A DNA stretch of 25,890 bases from a virus: the UHGV virus genome UHGV-0135394. One strand, written 5' to 3'. A program made the position numbers and the translations under genes. Within the stretch, counting starts at the first letter, position 1. Each line of letters begins with the position of its first letter. Below, piece by piece: positions 19,242-24,263 of the stretch. The notes under the pieces were generated by a model. It had not been told where the DNA came from and made no database searches. It saw only the letters and a list, made by a program, of their open reading frames with translations.

Positions 19242-19426
19242 GGCCTTCCCCTTTTGCCCTGTTTGACCATCAGGACGCCGTTAACTATTACGTGACGCTC
19301 GCCTTTGCTGTCTCGGTTGTACTTGAGCACTGTTCCTCTTGCGCAGGAAAGCATCCTCGCCACTTCGGTCTGATTGCCTCGTGTCTGGATAAGAAGCTCT
19401 GGTATCGTTTGAATTGTGGCGTTCAT
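19238..19426 (-). CDS. ninH: NinH-like protein (62 aa)
   Basis: ...GNQTEVAR...CSRGTV...IVN.VLMV matches recalled lambda NinH; ATGA overlap with Q start. Confidence 0.75.
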   Translation of the reverse strand: MNATIQTIPELLIQTRGNQTEVARMLSCARGTVLKYNRDSKGERHVIVNGVLMVKQGKRGRP

Positions 19427-19785
19427 ACGTTCTCCAGTTCGGTGATTTTTATTCCAAGCCTTCCGCCTGGTACTTTCACACCACGAATTACGCGAATGTC
19501 ATCGAATTGCTCGTCGTCTTCCGCAAATCCGGCGTGGATAAGGGAGTCGAGTAAACCTTTCAGGATGTTGTCGAGGTCGCGGCGGCGGGAGTCTGGAACG
19601 TCTGCGATGACTTTGATGCGGAGTCGTGATTTGGTGAAAATGTCTAACTTGAGTTGGCGGATTATTTGCTGTACATCTTCTCGGTATTTCTGGCCTTTAT
19701 CGCTGATGTAGTATTGGCTTCCCCTTCTTCGCCAGTAGGTATTCAGCGACGGTGGGTACGGAAGCACAAACTGATATTCGTTCAT
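19423..19785 (-). CDS. rusA: Holliday-junction resolvase RusA family (120 aa)
   Basis: Length and motifs (LP.PPS.N.Y...RRRDLDN...GGRL.I.I.E) match RusA; ATGA overlap with ninH. Confidence 0.85.
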   Translation of the reverse strand: MNEYQFVLPYPPSLNTYWRRRGSQYYISDKGQKYREDVQQIIRQLKLDIFTKSRLRIKVIADVPDSRRRDLDNILKGLLDSLIHAGFAEDDEQFDDIRVIRGVKVPGGRLGIKITELENV

Positions 19786-20072
19786 GACTTAATCTTCCCC
19801 TCCTTCAGCAGTATCACCTGCGTCCTGATCACGCCTTCGAGGTGGTAAAGTCTGGCGTCTTTGTTGTCGATATTATGGGTGCGTCGGTCGATTTCATCGT
19901 GACACGCGCTACAAGCCCATGCGCCGATCAGGTCGTCAGGCTTCATTCCCGTTCCGCAAATTCCAGCCATCCGGTAATGTGCCAGAACTGTAGTTTCAGG
20001 GTTGCCATTGCATACGCCGTAAATACGTACCTGACATTCTCTGCCGCGCGCTTCTTTGCGTAGATTAGCCAT
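19782..20072 (-). CDS. ybcO: YbcO-like nin-region protein, putative Cys-rich nuclease (96 aa)
   Basis: MA.LRK.ARGRECQVRI.GVCNGNPET.VLAH...CSACHDEIDRRTH matches recalled DLP12 YbcO; GGGGAGG SD 9 nt upstream; ATGA overlap with rusA. Confidence 0.8.
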   Translation of the reverse strand: MANLRKEARGRECQVRIYGVCNGNPETTVLAHYRMAGICGTGMKPDDLIGAWACSACHDEIDRRTHNIDNKDARLYHLEGVIRTQVILLKEGKIKS

Positions 20073-20392
20073 TAAGCAGCCTCCCCGGTTACTTTCAGCA
20101 TTCCGTTATCGAGCAGCTTTCTGGTCAGCCACTGTTGACCACGCCCGGTGATTTTTGTGGTGAACGATATCTGTATTCCGTGATTTGTGTTGACCGCTGT
20201 TTCTTTCACGGTGAAATAGGCGCGATCACTTTCGTCTACTCCGTTACAAAGCGAGGCTGGGTATTTCCCGGCCTTCCTGTTATCCGAAATCCTCTGAAAG
20301 CACAGCGGCTGGCTGAGGAGATAAATAATAAACGAGGGGCTGTATGCACAAAGCATCTCCTGTTGAGTTAAGAACGAGCATTGAGATGGCAC
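20072..20392 (-). CDS. Hypothetical; probably only the 3' part is a real (possibly 5'-truncated) nin-region gene
   Basis: C-terminal ~60 codons look coding and the stop is coupled (TAATG) to the ybcO-like start; N-terminal ~45 codons are low-complexity and overlap the divergent plus-strand gene by 49 bp. Confidence 0.3.
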   Translation of the reverse strand: MPSQCSFLTQQEMLCAYSPSFIIYLLSQPLCFQRISDNRKAGKYPASLCNGVDESDRAYFTVKETAVNTNHGIQISFTTKITGRGQQWLTRKLLDNGMLKVTGEAA

Positions 20393-20535
20393 ATAGCCTT
20401 GCTCAAATTGGAGTCAAGTTTGTGCCAATACCAGTAGAAACAGACGAAGAATTTCATACGTTAGCCGCATCCCTTTCACAAAAGCTGGAAATGATGGTGG
20501 CGAAAGCAGAAGCAGATGAGAGAGACCAGGTATGA
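20344..20535 (+). CDS. Small early-operon protein (63 aa), acidic
   Basis: SD GAGGGG 5 nt upstream of ATG; first gene of a plus-strand operon pointing toward int; stop overlaps next start (ATGA). Confidence 0.55.
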   Translation: MHKASPVELRTSIEMAHSLAQIGVKFVPIPVETDEEFHTLAASLSQKLEMMVAKAEADERDQV

Positions 20536-20615
20536 CAACCACGGAATGCATTTTTCTGGCAGCGGGCTTCATATTTTGTGTGCTTATGCTTGCCGACATG
20601 GGACTTGTTCAATGA
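20532..20615 (+). CDS. Candidate 27-aa hydrophobic micro-protein (MTTTECIFLAAGFIFCVLMLADMGLVQ)
   Basis: Found by manual reading; ATGA overlaps at both ends couple it to the genes on either side; single predicted TM helix; below ORF-track cutoff. Confidence 0.35.
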   Translation: MTTTECIFLAAGFIFCVLMLADMGLVQ

Positions 20616-20827
20616 CACCTCAGCAAGAAAACGCCCTTCGCAGCATTGCCCGTCTGGCTAACTCTGAAATCAAAAAAGCCAGACAGCAGTTTCCGGATAA
20701 AAACGTCGATGACATTTGCCGTAGCGTACTGAAGAAGCACCGCGAAACGGTAACGCTGATGGGATTCACACCGACTCATTTAAGCCAGGCGATCGGCATG
20801 TTAAACGGCGTCTTTAAGGAGCGATGA
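20612..20827 (+). CDS. Small early-operon protein (71 aa); start at internal Met of the 103-aa ORF
   Basis: ATG at 20612 is translationally coupled to the preceding micro-ORF; the upstream part of the ORF-track frame overlaps two other genes. Confidence 0.55.
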   Translation: MTPQQENALRSIARLANSEIKKARQQFPDKNVDDICRSVLKKHRETVTLMGFTPTHLSQAIGMLNGVFKER

Positions 20828-20848
20828 ACATGAAGAGCAAAATCATCA

Positions 20849-20873
20849 GGGAGCTACAGGCTCCTTTTTTATT
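20849..20873 (+). terminator. Short GC hairpin plus U6 tract inside the early operon (attenuator or sRNA 3' end candidate)
   Basis: GGAGC-UACAG-GCUCC (20850..20864) followed by UUUUUUAUU (20865..20873). Confidence 0.4.
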
Positions 20874-20925
20874 GTTCGCATTCACCCTCAAGCGTATTAA
20901 CCAACAATTCAGGGATTAATGGAAG

Positions 20926-21147
20926 ATGGCAGACATCATTGATTCAGCATCAGAAATTGAAGAATTACAGCGCAACACAGCAATAAAAATGCGCCGCCTG
21001 AACCACCAGGCTATATCTGCCACTCATTGTTGTGAGTGTGGCGATCCCATAGATGAACGAAGACGCCTGGTCGTTCAGGGTTGTCGGACTTGTGCAAGTT
21101 GCCAGGAGGATCTGGAGCTTATCAGTAAACAGAGAGGTTCGAAGTGA
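20926..21147 (+). CDS. C4 zinc-finger protein, TraR/DksA-like (73 aa)
   Basis: CCECGDPI...(16 residues)...CRTCASC four-cysteine motif near C-terminus; SD-like GGAAG upstream. Confidence 0.6.
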   Translation: MADIIDSASEIEELQRNTAIKMRRLNHQAISATHCCECGDPIDERRRLVVQGCRTCASCQEDLELISKQRGSK

Positions 21148-21560
21148 GCGAAATTAACTCTCAGGCACTGCGTGAGGCGGCAGTAGCAATTGAAACAGTA
21201 GCAACGCCTCAAAAATTGCTGGCATTTCGTATGAAAGTCACACCTCAGGTTGTGCTGGCACTGCTGGATGAACGGGAAAGAAACCAGCAATACATCAAAC
21301 GCCGCGACCAAGAGAACGAGGATATTGCGTTAACGGTAGGGAAGTTGCGCGTTGAGCTTGAGGCAGAAAAACAGCGGGCAAAGGATCTGTTTATGGAAAA
21401 TGCTCGGCTTAAGTCAGGTATAGCCGGTCTGATACACCTCGGTATTCGATATGCAGATGTTGAGGTCATGAGAATTGCTGGAGATGCCCAGCTTTCTACC
21501 CCATGCACTGACAGCATCATAAACAGCATTGCAACAGGCATTCGCATCAAAGGAGAGTGA
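21144..21560 (+). CDS. Ea22-like early-region protein (138 aa), GTG start
   Basis: Motif LLDERERNQQYIKRRDQENEDIALTVGKLRVELE is characteristic of lambdoid Ea22-family proteins; SD AGAGAGG 6 nt upstream; start overlaps previous stop. Confidence 0.7.
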   Translation: MSEINSQALREAAVAIETVATPQKLLAFRMKVTPQVVLALLDERERNQQYIKRRDQENEDIALTVGKLRVELEAEKQRAKDLFMENARLKSGIAGLIHLGIRYADVEVMRIAGDAQLSTPCTDSIINSIATGIRIKGE

Positions 21561-21561
21561 T

Positions 21562-22230
21562 ATGAGCGCTATAACCAAAGAACGTATCAAATTATTCATT
21601 AAAAATCCGCTTGATAACGGACTTACTCGTGGCGAACAAATGGAACTGGCACGAATTGCACTGGCATCACTGGAACGCGAACAGATTCGCCACGAGCATG
21701 CCAAATGGTCTGACTCCACATTTGGCTGCGTTGGCCCCATTGGTCCGCTGAAACATCTCTCAAAAGAGGCACTGGAAGCCGCAGCCGAACCAGACGATCT
21801 TAGCGAGTGGGCTGATATGCAGTTTCTGTTGTGGGATGCACAGCGCCGTGCTGGCATCAGCGATGCTGAAATTACCGCTGCTATGGAAGATAAATTGAAG
21901 ATCAACATGGAGCGCCAGTGGCCTGAGCCAAAAGATGGTGAGCCTCGCTTGCACATTAAAGAACCCGGCAACTATCCGGTAACTCCGGATGGTTGGATAA
22001 GCTGTAGTGAGCGAATGCCAGAAATGGGAGAGCGACAATGCTATGTGTTAGCAGCTGACTTTAAAAACAACTACCCACCAAACATCCCCAACACTCAGGT
22101 CGGCGTATATGGCGACTGGTTTAATGATGGCAATCCAACTTGGGATGACGGTGATGGCGAAGACCTGTATCTCAAAGAGGTAACCCACTGGATGCCTCTA
22201 CCAGAACCGCCTCGATTAAAGGAGCTATAA
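21562..22230 (+). CDS. DUF551-type early-region protein (222 aa); start at internal ATG with SD
   Basis: C-terminal ...VTHWMPLPEPP signature of DUF551 domains common in lambdoid ea regions; SD AGGAGA at 21551..21556. Confidence 0.7.
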   Translation: MSAITKERIKLFIKNPLDNGLTRGEQMELARIALASLEREQIRHEHAKWSDSTFGCVGPIGPLKHLSKEALEAAAEPDDLSEWADMQFLLWDAQRRAGISDAEITAAMEDKLKINMERQWPEPKDGEPRLHIKEPGNYPVTPDGWISCSERMPEMGERQCYVLAADFKNNYPPNIPNTQVGVYGDWFNDGNPTWDDGDGEDLYLKEVTHWMPLPEPPRLKEL

Positions 22231-22344
22231 TAGTGAACTATTATATCTATTTGTATTAAAAGAGTTTTTATAAAATAAATCTTCCAAAGCATGTAAAAAC
22301 ACTGTTAATCTTAACGTGTGTGAAACGTGAAGAGAGGTGTTGAA

Positions 22345-22626
22345 ATGAGCATTCATGATTTGTGTGAAGATCAAGAGCAATGGGCTATGCAGACCCTTAT
22401 GGGATCAGGAGTTCTTGCAAGGTGCAGAATCCATAACGATGTAATTTTAGACAGCGGAAATGATGCTTCTTCTGCTTATAAATTAGGAACTTACCTATAT
22501 CAAAAAGATAATAGCTGCAACTTATTCAATACTCTTACTGAAGCCCGCGACGCAATAAAGGATGCATATGAATCGTATTGTGGGATTGATGATTGCCCAC
22601 AATGCTCAAAATACATTGACGATTAA
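22345..22626 (+). CDS. Hypothetical Cys-containing moron protein (93 aa) in AT-rich island
   Basis: SD AGAGAGG 7 nt upstream of ATG 22345; region 22230..22900 is visibly AT-rich relative to flanks; followed by hairpin terminator(s). Confidence 0.55.
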   Translation: MSIHDLCEDQEQWAMQTLMGSGVLARCRIHNDVILDSGNDASSAYKLGTYLYQKDNSCNLFNTLTEARDAIKDAYESYCGIDDCPQCSKYIDD

Positions 22627-22646
22627 TAATATGAACAAGTAACTAT

Positions 22647-22700
22647 CCTCGCACTCGCGGGGATTTCTTTTATCTGAACTCGCTACGGCGAGTTTTGTTT
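22647..22700 (+). terminator. Two tandem hairpins with U-tracts after the 93-aa moron gene
   Basis: CCUCGC-ACUC-GCGGGG + AUUUCUUUUAU (22647..22673) and GAACUCGC-UACG-GCGAGUUU + UGUUUUAU (22676..22702). Confidence 0.45.
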
Positions 22701-22714
22701 TATGGAGATGATAA

Positions 22715-22882
22715 ATGCACTTCCGAGTCACAGGTGAATGGAATGGAGAGCCATTCAACAGAGTTATCGAAGCAGAGAACATCAATGACTGCTATGACCA
22801 CTGGATGCTATGGGCGCAGATAGCACATGCAGACATAACCAATATTCGAATTGAAGAACTGAAAGAACACCAAGCCGCCTGA
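22715..22882 (+). CDS. Hypothetical small protein (55 aa)
   Basis: GGAG SD 7 nt upstream of ATG; stop lies inside a terminator hairpin; below ORF-track cutoff, found by manual reading. Confidence 0.45.
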   Translation: MHFRVTGEWNGEPFNRVIEAENINDCYDHWMLWAQIAHADITNIRIEELKEHQAA

Positions 22883-22897
22883 TGGCGGTTTATTTTT
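22874..22897 (+). terminator. Intrinsic terminator between moron cassette and alpA-like gene
   Basis: GCCGCC-UGAU-GGCGGU stem-loop followed by UUAUUUUU. Confidence 0.5.
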
Positions 22898-22912
22898 GCC
22901 TGGAGAATTAAG

Positions 22913-23104
22913 ATGACCGATACCAGCCTGATTCCTGAGAAAGAAGTGATGAACAAGCTCGGTGTTTCATCACGTCAGACAATCTGGAACTATACCAAAC
23001 GGCACGGATTTCCGAAGCCAGTCAGAACCCACCCCAAATCATACCTTCGTGAAGCTGTTGAAGGGTGGATTCTTAACGGTGGCGTTAATCAGAAATGCTC
23101 CTGA
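22913..23104 (+). CDS. AlpA/excisionase-family HTH protein (63 aa)
   Basis: Short HTH-like protein adjacent to a P4-type integrase; 3' end overlaps the integrase 3' end by 20 bp on the opposite strand. Confidence 0.7.
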   Translation: MTDTSLIPEKEVMNKLGVSSRQTIWNYTKRHGFPKPVRTHPKSYLREAVEGWILNGGVNQKCS

Positions 23105-24263
23105 TGTGCCAGAACAATTTATCAGCGTGAAGCTCATACGCTTTGCGCTGAGCCTCTATCCAGTCGTGTTTATTGTATACGGACATTATCCCGCCAAGTT
23201 CATGACCGAGCATTCGCTCAGTAACATGAGGCTCGACATTCATCTCGGACAGACGTGTAACAAGCGTTCTTCTGAAATCATGTGTTCGCCAGTAACCCAG
23301 ATCCATCCCTCCCCTTATTCGATTTACGAATCGGTTGGCTGCAGCGATGCTGATCGGTTTGTTTATGTCTTCTCCAGGGAAAAGAACATCATTGTACGTT
23401 GTCATGGCCTTTTCGAGGAAAGGCTTAATTTGTTCGAAGATTGGACGGCGGATAACATTACCCATCTTGCTATGCTCTTTCGGTACGGTCCATACGTTGT
23501 CCAGCAGGTCAAACTCTGTCTTTGTTGCCAGCCTAAGCTCTGAGAGCCTCGCCCCCCACAGCATAAGCATCTGATGAAGGAGCTTATTTGACGTAGACGC
23601 ACGGCTTCTTTCAATAGCAAGCCAAATCTTAGCCAGTTCGTGATACGACAGTACCCGATCCCCTACCTCAGCGCGGGAGCCGAAGTCCCTTGGTTGGATG
23701 CTCATAATTGCGCAACTATCTATCAACTGACGCCGCATGCACCAACTTATTGCTGATCTTAGTTGACTTAGCACCTGCCTTGCTCGGCGTGGATTATCTC
23801 TTTCTTCTTCGGTAAGCAGGTCAACCCATTGCTTAACCGTGATAGAAGATGCCGGACGATTAGGAAAGGCGTCATGCATGCGCTTCATAACCGTTGATCG
23901 GTAAAGTGCCTGGGTCTTTTCTCTGAGAGTTGTAGAGACGTAGTTGTCGAACCAGTAGTCGAGACACTGGGCGACCGTCATGGAGTTCTCCACCTTCTCT
24001 TCAAAATAAGTGCGTGGATCCGTTCCTGAGAAATAGAGCTTTCGCAAGTCAGCAGTGATCTGTCTGGCATCCTTCAAAGACAGGGATGGGTATCGACCAA
24101 GCCCAAGTCGATTAGGCTTGCCATGCCAGCGATAGCGGTACTGGAACTGGATGACCCCCTTCGGTGAAATTCGTACGCTGAGGCCATCGGCATCAGCCAC
24201 TTCTTGTGGGCCAGAATATGGTTTACCATAAATAGTACGCAGTTTTGTGTCGCTTATAGCCAT
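23085..24263 (-). CDS. int: Tyrosine site-specific integrase, P4-type with N-terminal arm-binding domain (392 aa)
   Basis: N-terminal DUF4102-like domain (...GLSVRISPKGVIQFQYRYRWHGKPNRLGLGRYPSLSLKDAR); catalytic signature HDFRRT ... LGHELGG ... SVY near C-terminus; located at the prophage-host junction. Confidence 0.92.
   Translation of the reverse strand: MAISDTKLRTIYGKPYSGPQEVADADGLSVRISPKGVIQFQYRYRWHGKPNRLGLGRYPSLSLKDARQITADLRKLYFSGTDPRTYFEEKVENSMTVAQCLDYWFDNYVSTTLREKTQALYRSTVMKRMHDAFPNRPASSITVKQWVDLLTEEERDNPRRARQVLSQLRSAISWCMRRQLIDSCAIMSIQPRDFGSRAEVGDRVLSYHELAKIWLAIERSRASTSNKLLHQMLMLWGARLSELRLATKTEFDLLDNVWTVPKEHSKMGNVIRRPIFEQIKPFLEKAMTTYNDVLFPGEDINKPISIAAANRFVNRIRGGMDLGYWRTHDFRRTLVTRLSEMNVEPHVTERMLGHELGGIMSVYNKHDWIEAQRKAYELHADKLFWHIRSISD

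Follow-up and report, generated by a model that had tools for sequence, protein, structure and literature searches.

A probable promoterless remnant of the lambda-type exo-xis block in a defective prophage, and a hydrophobic 27-aa reading frame under purifying selection within it

Gene Content and Identity of the Block

The window—the whole 25,890-nt stretch of viral DNA analyzed here—carries between positions 20217 and 22626 a closely packed series of mostly small genes, orf60a-orf63-orf61-orf73-ea22-ea8.5 (Table 1). The ORFs of 63, 27, 71, 31, and 73 aa listed in the first-pass annotation, and their ATGA stop–start overlaps at 20532–20535, 20612–20615, and 20824–20827, are present exactly as described there. 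The chain itself, which that annotation confined to 20344–21147, extends further: it starts at a truncated orf60a (~20217), which overlaps the 63-aa gene by 28 nt, and runs via the ea22-like gene, whose start is coupled to the orf73 stop by a GTGA overlap at 21144–21147, as far as ea8.5. The integrase lies on the opposite strand, so that the operon converges on it. The element is flanked by sbcB (E. coli matches are annotated as sbcB/integrase). Among 150–156 distinct haplotypes drawn from public viral contigs, the ATGA at 20532 is invariant, the site at 20612 is ATGA in 136 and GTGA in 19, and that at 20824 is ATGA in 57 and GTGA in 93, with a second ATG (20830) invariant. The start/stop overlap arrangement is thus not a chance feature of the window copy.

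Table 1. Features at the locus, in window coordinates.
Feature	Position	Strand	Basis
roi 3' remnant, ~51 codons; KilAC-domain antirepressor-like nin-region gene	20072–20227	-	left side of junction
Deletion junction, 11-bp microhomology TAGGCGCGATC common to roi and orf60a	20217–20227		three-way alignment
orf60a (DUF1317), lacking start codon and first ~9 codons	20217–20371	+	Pfam DUF1317, E=1e-30, profile positions 10–60 of 60
orf63, 63 aa, DUF1382	20344–20535	+	Pfam DUF1382, E=1.5e-30
27-aa hydrophobic ORF (mini27)	20532–20615	+	ORF list; ATGA overlaps with orf63 and orf61
orf61, intact 71-aa form	20612–20827	+	PHROG 303, E=2e-34
31-aa ORF (conserved form 29 aa, from ATG 20830)	20824–20919	+	ORF list
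t2, intrinsic-terminator-like hairpin and T-run, within the 31-aa ORF	20848–20876	+	terminator scan, RNA fold
7-aa ORF, MEDGRHH	20919–20942	+	sequence; between 31-aa ORF and orf73
orf73, 73 aa, TraR/DksA-family C4 zinc finger	20926–21147	+	Pfam zf-dskA_traR
ea22-like gene, 138 aa, GTG start	21144–21560	+	Pfam Ead_Ea22, E=2e-21
dATP/dGTP pyrophosphohydrolase and DUF551 gene, variable part	21529–22230	+	Pfam PF04447, E=6e-42; PF04448, E=3e-20
ea8.5-related gene	22327–22626	+	Pfam Lambda_ea8_5, E=1e-15
AlpA/excisionase-like HTH ORF	22913–23104	+	PHROG 66, E=2e-8; weak Pfam AlpA match
Tyrosine integrase	23085–24263	-	Pfam Arm-DNA-bind_3 and Phage_integrase

Several lines of evidence identify these genes. 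The Pfam families found in the block are DUF1317, DUF1382, zf-dskA_traR, Ead_Ea22, and Lambda_ea8_5, and the order orf60a-orf63-orf61-orf73-ea22 obtained from Pfam and PHROG matches is the order annotated in lambda, Stx2 phage II, and E. coli J31. At the nucleotide level the block shares 97.6% identity across 944 nt with phage lambda, HK630, and lambda imm434, and 96% with Stx phages including VT2-Sakai; 174 phage records reach at least 80% query coverage in the nucleotide search. The module is also carried by ~4000 complete E. coli genomes. Intact relatives in RefSeq/GenBank are annotated with exo, DUF1317 (the orf60a counterpart in, e.g., locus L001), DUF1382, a 71-aa hypothetical protein, TraR/DksA, an Ea22-like gene, and then xis and int, with cIII, kil, gam, and bet upstream of exo. 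The Orf63 product is identical to lambda Orf63 at 60/63 residues (95%) and matches the NMR structure of the latter (PDB 8DSB) at E=6e-33. We conclude, with a probability of about 0.9, that window 20217–22626 represents the exo-xis (bin) block, the promoter-distal part of a lambda-type pL operon, surviving as a promoterless remnant in a defective P22-like prophage adjoining sbcB. No evidence contradicting the exo-xis identification was found, and the first impression of an early operon of packed, coupled, small host-acting genes holds, in that this is the promoter-distal early-left (pL-type) part of a lambdoid prophage. As a whole the module is already described in the literature and is ordinary apart from the 27-aa ORF. 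A separate scan of genome contigs returned mostly lambda contamination within unrelated assemblies.

The 73-aa product was correctly recognized at the outset as a C4 zinc-finger protein and has exactly the sequence of lambda Orf73 (100% identity). It scores 34.8 bits against zf-dskA_traR (PF01258; cut-off 24.9), matches the PDB entries of TraR (5W1S, E=2e-5; also 6N57), and reaches 54.7 bits in the NCBIfam TraR subfamily, slightly below the 59.7 cut-off. Its N-terminus, MADIIDSA, carries the DxxDxA motif (D3, D6, A8) that is required for function (PMC9239242). Lambda Orf73 binds the RNA polymerase secondary channel at the same site as TraR/DksA, inhibits rrnB P1 with an IC50 of ~50 nM, and increases phage yield (PMC9239242), and the window Orf73 is predicted by identity to share this RNA polymerase activity. 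In an intact phage, as the literature has it, transcription of the block starts at pL, under N antitermination and CI repression, its genes lie end to end with several start/stop overlaps, and its products retune the host and the lysis–lysogeny decision. Specifically, Orf73 shuts down rRNA and ribosomal-protein promoters and activates amino-acid promoters, lytic growth is favored by Orf60a, Orf63, and Orf61, and lysogeny by Ea22.

The dicB operon of the Qin cryptic prophage (ydfA-ydfB-ydfC-dicF-dicB-ydfD) provided the model on which the chain was initially interpreted, as an operon encoding a division inhibitor and an sRNA under a DicA/DicC-like switch. We reject it as family membership and regard it as extremely improbable. 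The analogy is one of position only—both are early-left lambdoid operons with small genes reading toward the integration end—while every sizeable product of the block has a different, specific identity, and profile searches give clear homology to known families for the 63-, 71-, and 73-aa products, an outcome that the first-pass annotation had itself listed as counting against the idea. No DicB, YdfA, YdfB, YdfC, or YdfD match was returned for 10 products at E≤0.1 (Pfam, PHROGs) or for seven at E≤1 (NCBIfam). The proposed sRNA likewise found no counterpart: Rfam yielded no match at the gathering threshold across the whole window, and at E≤1 in 19900–23300 a single, spurious mir-277 match and no DicF. 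To the left of the chain lies nin-region DNA on the other strand, and no family match to a DicA/DicC repressor pair adjoins it. What can be kept of the suggested division inhibitor is a link of the lambda region to the host cell cycle: host cell-cycle effects of exo-xis, in the form of the “bin” block of replication initiation, are given in a summary (Sergueev 2002, in PMC10789677), and these effects also speak for the dicB comparison. The inhibitor proper to this operon type is Kil, which is deleted here. Our finding re-identifies a described module and leaves the understanding of such operons unchanged.

The Deletion Junction and Its Consequences

At its left end the block was cut by a deletion, located by a three-way alignment in which the window was compared to roi from CUS-3 and to exo/orf60a from E. 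coli J31. Window 19400–20227 is 97–98% identical to ninH-rusA-DUF1364-roi of CUS-3, HK140, and E. coli prophages, and a 106-aa ORF (20072–20392) gives a Pfam ANT/KilAC match. This homology ends at 20227, whereas homology on the right begins at 20217, exactly the position at which it starts in 285 related loci. The junction occurs in only one other contig among the related loci (IMGVR_UViG_3300045988_015114), and no junction-spanning match was obtained among 5426 complete E. coli genomes. An illegitimate deletion at the 11-bp microhomology fused the roi 3' end to codon ~10 of orf60a. Lost with it were exo, bet, gam, kil, cIII, N, pL, the immunity region, the replication genes, and part of the nin region.

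It had been remarked that no repressor is visible in the element and that control of the operon is unclear. The first part stands: the repressor is absent because the deletion took out the immunity region. The second does not, as the loss of pL, N, and the immunity region explains the apparent lack of control; the microhomology deletion is thus the structural cause of the missing repressor, and it marks the element as a dead prophage without unusual control. A crude scan found no sigma-70-like promoters in 19900–23200, against 4.9 expected from shuffles. Weak internal promoters, p1 and p2, are predicted in the exo-xis region (Bloch et al., PMC4195576) and might still act. From the missing pL and the crude promoter scan, the block in the window copy is probably silent, or expressed solely from weak internal promoters. 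The deletion leaves this copy without control by pL, CI, and N; its family assignment is unaffected.

The Mini-ORFs and the Gene Model of orf61

The 27-aa product, MTTTECIFLAAGFIFCVLMLADMGLVQ, has a mean Kyte–Doolittle hydropathy of 2.33 over 19 residues and is the most hydrophobic among the 110 ATG-initiated ORFs of 20–40 aa in the window, which bears out its initial description as a single hydrophobic helix. The frame is intact in 150/152 distinct haplotypes. Polymorphism in this frame yields a pN/pS of 0.29 when every allele is counted and 0.11 when only those shared by two or more haplotypes are (binomial p = 6e-4 and 6e-5), as low as in orf61 (0.29 and 0.18) and orf73, while the other two frames give ~1; the test draws on 31 variant alleles in sequences >90% identical, and sequencing errors may account for some of the singletons. 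The 27-aa ORF is therefore under protein-level purifying selection. Since it is intact and has a low pN/pS in its own frame, it is probably real, and it probably encodes a small inner-membrane peptide whose translation is coupled to that of orf63.

The distribution of the ORF is narrow and its annotation sparse. Lambda encodes the identical peptide, and the exact sequence is deposited as “hypothetical protein” on 981 contigs; there is no annotation of the ORF in RefSeq or lambda records and no family match in Pfam, PHROGs, or NCBIfam. It is missing beside diverged orf63 (DUF1382) homologues and remote orf61 homologues, where the neighbors differ, and is therefore young and confined to one phage module; conservation beyond that module is not demonstrable, so the coding test rests on within-module polymorphism. 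Two sets of database matches were discarded: the apparent distant Orf61 relatives P0071 and P0073 are indel-ridden copies of the same sequence, and the 428-aa members of the database cluster of the 27-aa peptide are unrelated glycosyltransferase-like proteins grouped by a clustering artefact. We know of no experimental detection of the 27-aa ORF. A full-text literature search for the mini-ORF peptide sequences and the supplements of a small-gene study of O157:H7 Sakai gave no match, and the summary of lambda ribosome profiling in PMC8614690 gives only a 7-aa and a 31-aa product as extras in the block. The selection evidence presented here goes beyond the literature that we found.

In reference records the ORF is hidden because the annotation places orf61 over it in a different frame, and it could be no gene at all if 20546–20611 were the N-terminus of a 93-aa (or 103-aa) Orf61. 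Such forms are annotated in lambda, phi24B, and Stx2 phage II, PHROG 303 includes the extension, many 93-aa entries populate the database cluster, and the 93-aa frame is open in 134/144 haplotypes. Nonetheless, we find this very unlikely. The 93-aa extension frame has higher pN/pS values than the 27-aa frame, 0.54 compared with 0.29 overall and 1.0 compared with 0.11 when only alleles shared by two or more haplotypes are counted, and the 103-aa extension is interrupted by an in-frame TGA in most haplotypes (stop in 105/130, intact in 25/130). Eighteen remote homologues begin at the methionine of the 71-aa form (the remote homologues, at 32–62% identity, align over their full length and measure 69–75 aa except for a single 89-aa protein), and in a mosaic locus (L186) where a 250-aa gene replaces orf63 and the 27-aa ORF, Orf61 keeps the same start ATG. 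The NCBI pipeline calls the same 71-aa CDS, as given in RefSeq; AlphaFold2 folds it confidently into three helices (pLDDT 87.6), and residues 1–23 of the 93-aa form are inconsistent between models (Donaldson 2021). In the lambda reference an extra A in an A6 run truncates orf61, whereas the window has the intact 71-aa form. The lambda reference, like many Stx-phage records, probably carries an incorrect gene model for orf61; what is conserved is the 71-aa protein.

The label “cell division protein ZapA,” now spreading through NCBI records of the 71-aa protein, is unsupported: the Pfam ZapA match stays below its threshold (15.9 vs. 23.8 bits, E=0.016), and Foldseek of the 71-aa model against PDB gave no match at E≤0.001 and no ZapA among the best 50 matches listed. 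A homeodomain reading was also rejected, the Pitx2 match (E=3.5, TM-score 0.34) being not significant.

We would put even odds on the fuller proposition that the 27-aa ORF is a genuine inner-membrane peptide of lambda and Shiga-toxin phages, hidden under a misdrawn orf61, and that it could own some of the orf61 phenotypes. Published orf61 deletions replaced the entire annotated ORF (PMC6213356) and therefore removed the 27-aa ORF too, which is why the gene model matters to those who study exo-xis genetics in Shiga-toxin phages. If this proposition were true, some orf61 phenotypes could belong to the peptide, and perhaps part of the envelope-stress signature of exo-xis would be due to it.

That the peptide might be a membrane toxin of the type I kind, or a division-blocking peptide, seems quite unlikely to us. 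A single hydrophobic helix of this size would suit such a role, and phi24B lacking the whole exo-xis region shows lowered stress genes during infection (degP −3.0 log2, htpX −2.4, with ibpB and the heat-shock regulon down; PMC10789677), as would fit the loss of a membrane-perturbing product. Against this, the 27-aa gene is embedded in an operon with coupling to the genes on both sides, unlike type I toxin loci, and neither a promoter-like site on either strand nor an Rfam RNA was found (scans that reach described RNA families only). F-plasmid TraR activates the sigma-E pathway, and the TraR-like Orf73 might account for the stress-regulon effect. The exo-xis region is, moreover, tolerated on multicopy plasmids (PMC3824215).

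Downstream, the 31-aa ORF is intact in 146/148 haplotypes, with a pN/pS of 0.35 vs. 0.85–1.33 in the other frames. The start of its 29-aa form is preceded by TAAGGAG/TAAGGAA, and a pN/pS of 0.30–0.35 in that form (p = 0.004 and 0.05) weakly indicates some peptide-level constraint. The ORF is annotated in lambda record PV340536.1, and PMC8614690 credits a 31-aa product of the block to lambda ribosome profiling (Liu 2013). The hairpin within it has been independently predicted as terminator t2 in lambda and phi24B (PMC4195576, Table 4), where the same sequence is listed; lambda t2 and the window sequence agree as far as the T-run, and a single G/A difference (20874) falls in the tail. The 7-aa ORF is intact in 148/148 haplotypes (lambda counterpart MKDGRHH); a TAATG overlap links its start to the 31-aa stop, it also overlaps the orf73 start, and it has the length of the 7-aa product in the profiling summary (PMC8614690).

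Such an arrangement raises the question of whether the mini-ORFs are translated purely as bridges against polarity, masking t2, with peptides that have no function. The 27-aa and 31-aa ORFs exactly fill gaps of 76 and 98 nt that would otherwise be non-coding, their stop and start codons overlap or adjoin those of their neighbors, t2 lies within the 31-aa ORF, and the 29-aa form has three nonsynonymous alleles (S→N, R→M, T→I), each in 17–18 haplotypes. A pure bridge, however, predicts an open frame with pN/pS near 1, not the 0.11–0.29 of the 27-aa frame, and would not keep the strong hydrophobicity of its product; for the 29-aa form the low ratio is a weak argument in the same direction. For the pair, then, a bridge-only role is unlikely. 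The most likely role of the 29/31-aa ORF includes, as a minimum, that of a translated bridge, which would take ribosomes to orf73 and mask the t2 hairpin.

Comparison With Known Systems

[quoted passage not shown] The window copy differs in lacking exo, pL, N, kil, cIII, gam, bet, and the first ~9 codons of orf60a, in carrying a dATP/dGTP pyrophosphohydrolase–DUF551 gene in its variable distal part, and in having an integrase of another type on the opposite strand.

With the Qin dicB operon the block shares its nature as an early-left lambdoid operon of very small host-acting genes. It encodes no homologue of the dicB-operon proteins, lacks DicF RNA and a DicA/DicC-type switch, and where dicB brings about MinC-dependent division inhibition, the known activities of exo-xis are RNA-polymerase reprogramming and a lysis–lysogeny bias.

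The 27-aa ORF resembles the hydrophobic bacterial and phage proteins of <50 aa that ribosome profiling and comparative genomics have brought to light—a class of which the small membrane proteins of E. coli (Hemm et al. 2008) are an example—in size, in its single predicted transmembrane helix, and in having been omitted from annotation, and differs from the known ones in having no family match and in being confined to one phage module. Finally, both the C4 zinc finger and the N-terminal DxxDxA of F-plasmid TraR and DksA occur in the 73-aa product, though, in contrast to TraR, orf73 is phage-borne and lies in a pL operon rather than a transfer operon.

Identity and extent of the gene chain

The first-pass annotation described a DicB-operon-like chain of coupled mini-genes of 63, 27, 71, possibly 31 and 73 aa, and all five ORFs are present on the plus strand, as are the three claimed ATGA stop-start overlaps (at 20532, 20612 and 20824). 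The chain continues past 21147 to 22626, with orf73 joined to the next gene by a GTGA overlap at 21144; a 7-aa ORF, a truncated first gene and the strand of the integrase had been missed. The operon reading stands insofar as the chain is an early-left operon remnant with small host-acting genes, whereas the comparison with DicB was wrong in kind.

Coordinates and Pfam assignments of features in and around the chain
Feature	Position	Strand	Basis or assignment
Chimeric ORF, 106 aa	20072-20392	-	Roi KilAC C-terminus at end
Chimeric ORF, 78 aa, TTG start	20135-20371	+	DUF1317 sequence at end
Truncated first gene	about 20217-20371		DUF1317
orf63, 63 aa	20344-20535	+	ORF list and sequence; DUF1382
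27-aa ORF	20532-20615	+	ORF list and sequence
orf61, 71 aa	20612-20827	+	ORF list and sequence
31-aa ORF	20824-20919	+	ORF list and sequence
t2 hairpin	20848-20876		
7-aa ORF	20919-20942		
orf73, 73 aa	20926-21147	+	ORF list and sequence; zf-dskA_traR
Gene after orf73			Ead_Ea22
Gene after Ea22-like gene			dATP/dGTP pyrophosphohydrolase + DUF551
Last gene of chain			Lambda_ea8_5
Hairpins 3' of ea8.5	22645-22664, 22676-22695, 22872-22891		terminator-like, strong
Integrase	23085-24263	-	

Judged by its sequence, the system is one already known and near-identical to that of phage lambda. Specifically, window positions 20217-21160 match lambda, HK630 and lambda imm434 over their full length at 97.6% identity and many Shiga-toxin phages at about 96%, and related DNA is present in >4000 complete genomes of E. 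coli. The annotation of an intact prophage in this species runs cIII, kil, gam, bet, exo, DUF1317, DUF1382, 71-aa hypothetical, TraR/DksA, Ea22-like, excisionase and integrase; the lambda record gives the same genes as orf60a, orf63, orf61, then a 29-aa CDS, a TraR/YbiI family protein and Ea22. In profile searches the 63-aa protein is DUF1382, and it matches PDB 8DSB (E=6e-33), in which dimeric lambda Orf63 was solved by NMR (PMC10869804); that entry carries the molecule name "Xis (Excision72)," which could mislead automated annotation. The C4 zinc finger proposed for the 73-aa product holds up in Pfam, and the protein is lambda Orf73 at every residue. Orf73 of lambda occupies the DksA/TraR site of RNA polymerase and inhibits rrnB P1 (IC50 about 50 nM); it depends on its DxxDxA motif and increases the phage yield (PMC9239242). 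The exo-xis block is transcribed early from pL, with orf60a, orf63 and orf61 described as pro-lytic and orf73 and ea22 as pro-lysogenic (PMC8614690). PMC10789677, citing Sergueev 2002, reports that pL operon induction blocks host cell division and replication initiation, hence the region's other name, "bin."

The 27-aa ORF and the orf61 gene model

The annotated lengths of orf61 are 61 aa in lambda (from the equivalent of 20516), 93 aa in Stx2 phage II (from 20546) and 71 aa in RefSeq (from 20612). The lambda protein is truncated because an extra (seventh) A in an A6 run (window 20666-20671, equivalent to 1954-1960 of the related locus L002) shifts its frame; the window and most relatives keep an intact 71 aa, and the apparent truncation was already remarked upon (Donaldson, 2021). 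Several observations favour the 71-aa form: the remote homologues recovered by exhaustive HMMER search (32-62% identical; 69-75 aa except one of 89 aa) all align with it end to end, the mosaic locus L186 keeps the same ATG behind unrelated upstream DNA, a 103-aa form meets an in-frame TGA in 105/130 haplotypes, and AlphaFold2 models the 71-aa protein as three helices (pLDDT 87.6).

That model has no significant Foldseek match in the PDB. The name "cell division protein ZapA" in many NCBI records has as its sole basis found a sub-threshold Pfam hit (15.9 vs 23.8 bits), and it is not supported, given a confident model without a ZapA-like PDB match; a homeodomain is likewise unsupported by Foldseek. 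The Orf61 family reaches other phages and prophages, and some remote homologues (L310-L313) immediately follow MT-A70 DNA methyltransferase genes, which they overlap by 4-14 nt. In L186, from E. coli, a 250-aa gene replaces orf63 and the 27-aa ORF. DNA 98% identical to the block and bearing the lambda-specific frameshift occurs in loci L008-L021 (in assemblies labelled Shewanella, Bradyrhizobium, Chromatium, Pseudomonas, Paenibacillus, Kitasatospora, Oceanobacillus and others), most likely as lambda DNA contamination of these assemblies.

Given an Orf61 start at 20612, the 27-aa ORF is the only one in the 76 nt that separate orf63 from orf61. Among 165 distinct haplotypes of the homologous stretch, drawn from 308 loci, this ORF is intact in 150 of the 152 that cover it (one exception lacks only the last codon, the other is an indel-ridden assembly), and the ATGA at 20532 is invariant. 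Its frame carries a synonymous excess (binomial p = 6e-4 for all alleles, 6e-5 for recurrent ones).

Variation per reading frame among haplotypes, for all alleles and for alleles in ≥2 haplotypes
Frame	Syn/non-syn	pN/pS, all	pN/pS, ≥2 haplotypes
27-aa ORF	16/15	0.29	0.11 (11/4)
Extension frame, same span	10/20	0.54	1.00
Third frame, same span	5/25	1.36	0.99
orf61	28/29	0.29	0.18
orf73	37/41	0.32	0.21
orf63	9/20	0.63	0.57

The product was proposed to be a hydrophobic helix and is indeed strongly hydrophobic (Kyte-Doolittle mean 2.33 over 19 residues), ranking top among the window's 110 ATG-ORFs of 20-40 aa. We consider the ORF to encode a real, translationally coupled small peptide, predicted to lie in the membrane, with a probability of roughly 0.6-0.7. 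The peptide is identical in lambda and deposited as an unnamed "hypothetical protein" on 981 contigs; RefSeq and lambda records carry no annotation of it, and we found no mention of it in the literature. Its 90%-identity cluster also lists two 428-aa glycosyltransferase-like proteins (P0080, P0081), which are unrelated and reflect a clustering artefact of very short sequences. Neither diverged DUF1382 genes nor remote Orf61 homologues have the ORF next to them, so it is young and confined to the exo-xis module.

In published orf61 deletions the complete annotated ORF was replaced (PMC6213356), which took out the 27-aa ORF as well. In infections by phi24B without the entire exo-xis region, degP, htpX, ibpB and the heat-shock regulon are lowered (PMC10789677). 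This drop, to which we attach little weight, is compatible with a membrane-active product; the TraR-like Orf73 might equally be its source, since F-plasmid TraR activates the sigma-E pathway. Only the evidence for selection on the 27-aa ORF as a coding sequence, and for a wrong orf61 annotation drawn across it, goes beyond the accessible literature.

The 31-aa ORF and the t2 hairpin

The 31-aa peptide is also identical in lambda, and its frame has a pN/pS of 0.35 vs 0.85-1.33 in the other frames (p = 0.004). Its conserved form is 29 aa, because position 20824 is GTG in most haplotypes while the ATG at 20830 is invariant and preceded, at good spacing, by TAAGGAG or TAAGGAA. Lambda ribosome profiling reportedly yielded 31-aa and 7-aa products in the conserved block (Liu, 2013, as cited in PMC8614690), lengths that agree with those of the 20824 and 20919 ORFs. 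Inside the 31-aa ORF lies a terminator-like hairpin with a T-run, the "t2" predicted by Bloch et al., downstream of which mRNA levels are lower in lambda (Bloch et al.). Translation of the ORF would carry ribosomes over the gap to orf73 and could mask this hairpin.

State of this copy and comparison with known systems

The left flank (19400-20227, minus strand) matches the ninH-rusA-DUF1364(hkbD)-roi segment of CUS-3, HK140 and many prophages, and homology to the exo-xis block starts at 20217. Because the two homologies overlap in TAGGCGCGATC in a three-way alignment, a deletion across this 11-bp microhomology must have fused the last ~51 codons of roi (a KilAC-domain nin-region gene) to about codon 10 of orf60a. 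It took out all that separates the two in a lambdoid genome: exo, bet, gam, kil, cIII, N, pL, the immunity region—and with it the repressor—the replication genes and a portion of the nin region. Besides the window, a single metagenomic viral contig carries the junction, which two chimeric ORFs span; it occurs in 0/5426 complete E. coli genomes. With this deletion, a Q antiterminator, a P22-type small terminase and other late genes on the minus strand, and a site adjoining sbcB, the element is a defective P22-like prophage. The window holds no tRNA gene (ARAGORN).

In a simple scan of 19900-23200 (3.3 kb) neither strand had a sigma-70-like promoter match, whereas shuffled sequence gave an expectation of 4.9, and the operon interior seems depleted of promoter-like sequence. 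We infer no more than weak expression, or none, for this copy of the block; the weak internal promoters predicted in lambda (Bloch et al.), p1 over the t2 hairpin and p2 within the 27-aa ORF, might still fire.

A DicB operon is rejected: searches of Pfam, PHROGs and NCBIfam link no product to DicB or the Ydf proteins, and Rfam finds neither DicF nor any other RNA. The division inhibitor of lambda-type pL operons is Kil; intact relatives have its gene upstream of exo, and here it is deleted. The likeness to dicB is positional only. As for lambda, the hairpins downstream of ea8.5 resemble its predicted t3, t4 and t5 (Bloch et al., 2014). Unlike in lambda, the pL-type operon and the minus-strand integrase gene converge in this element, and the 3' end of int is overlapped for 20 nt by a plus-strand AlpA/excisionase-like ORF (22913-24263 together).
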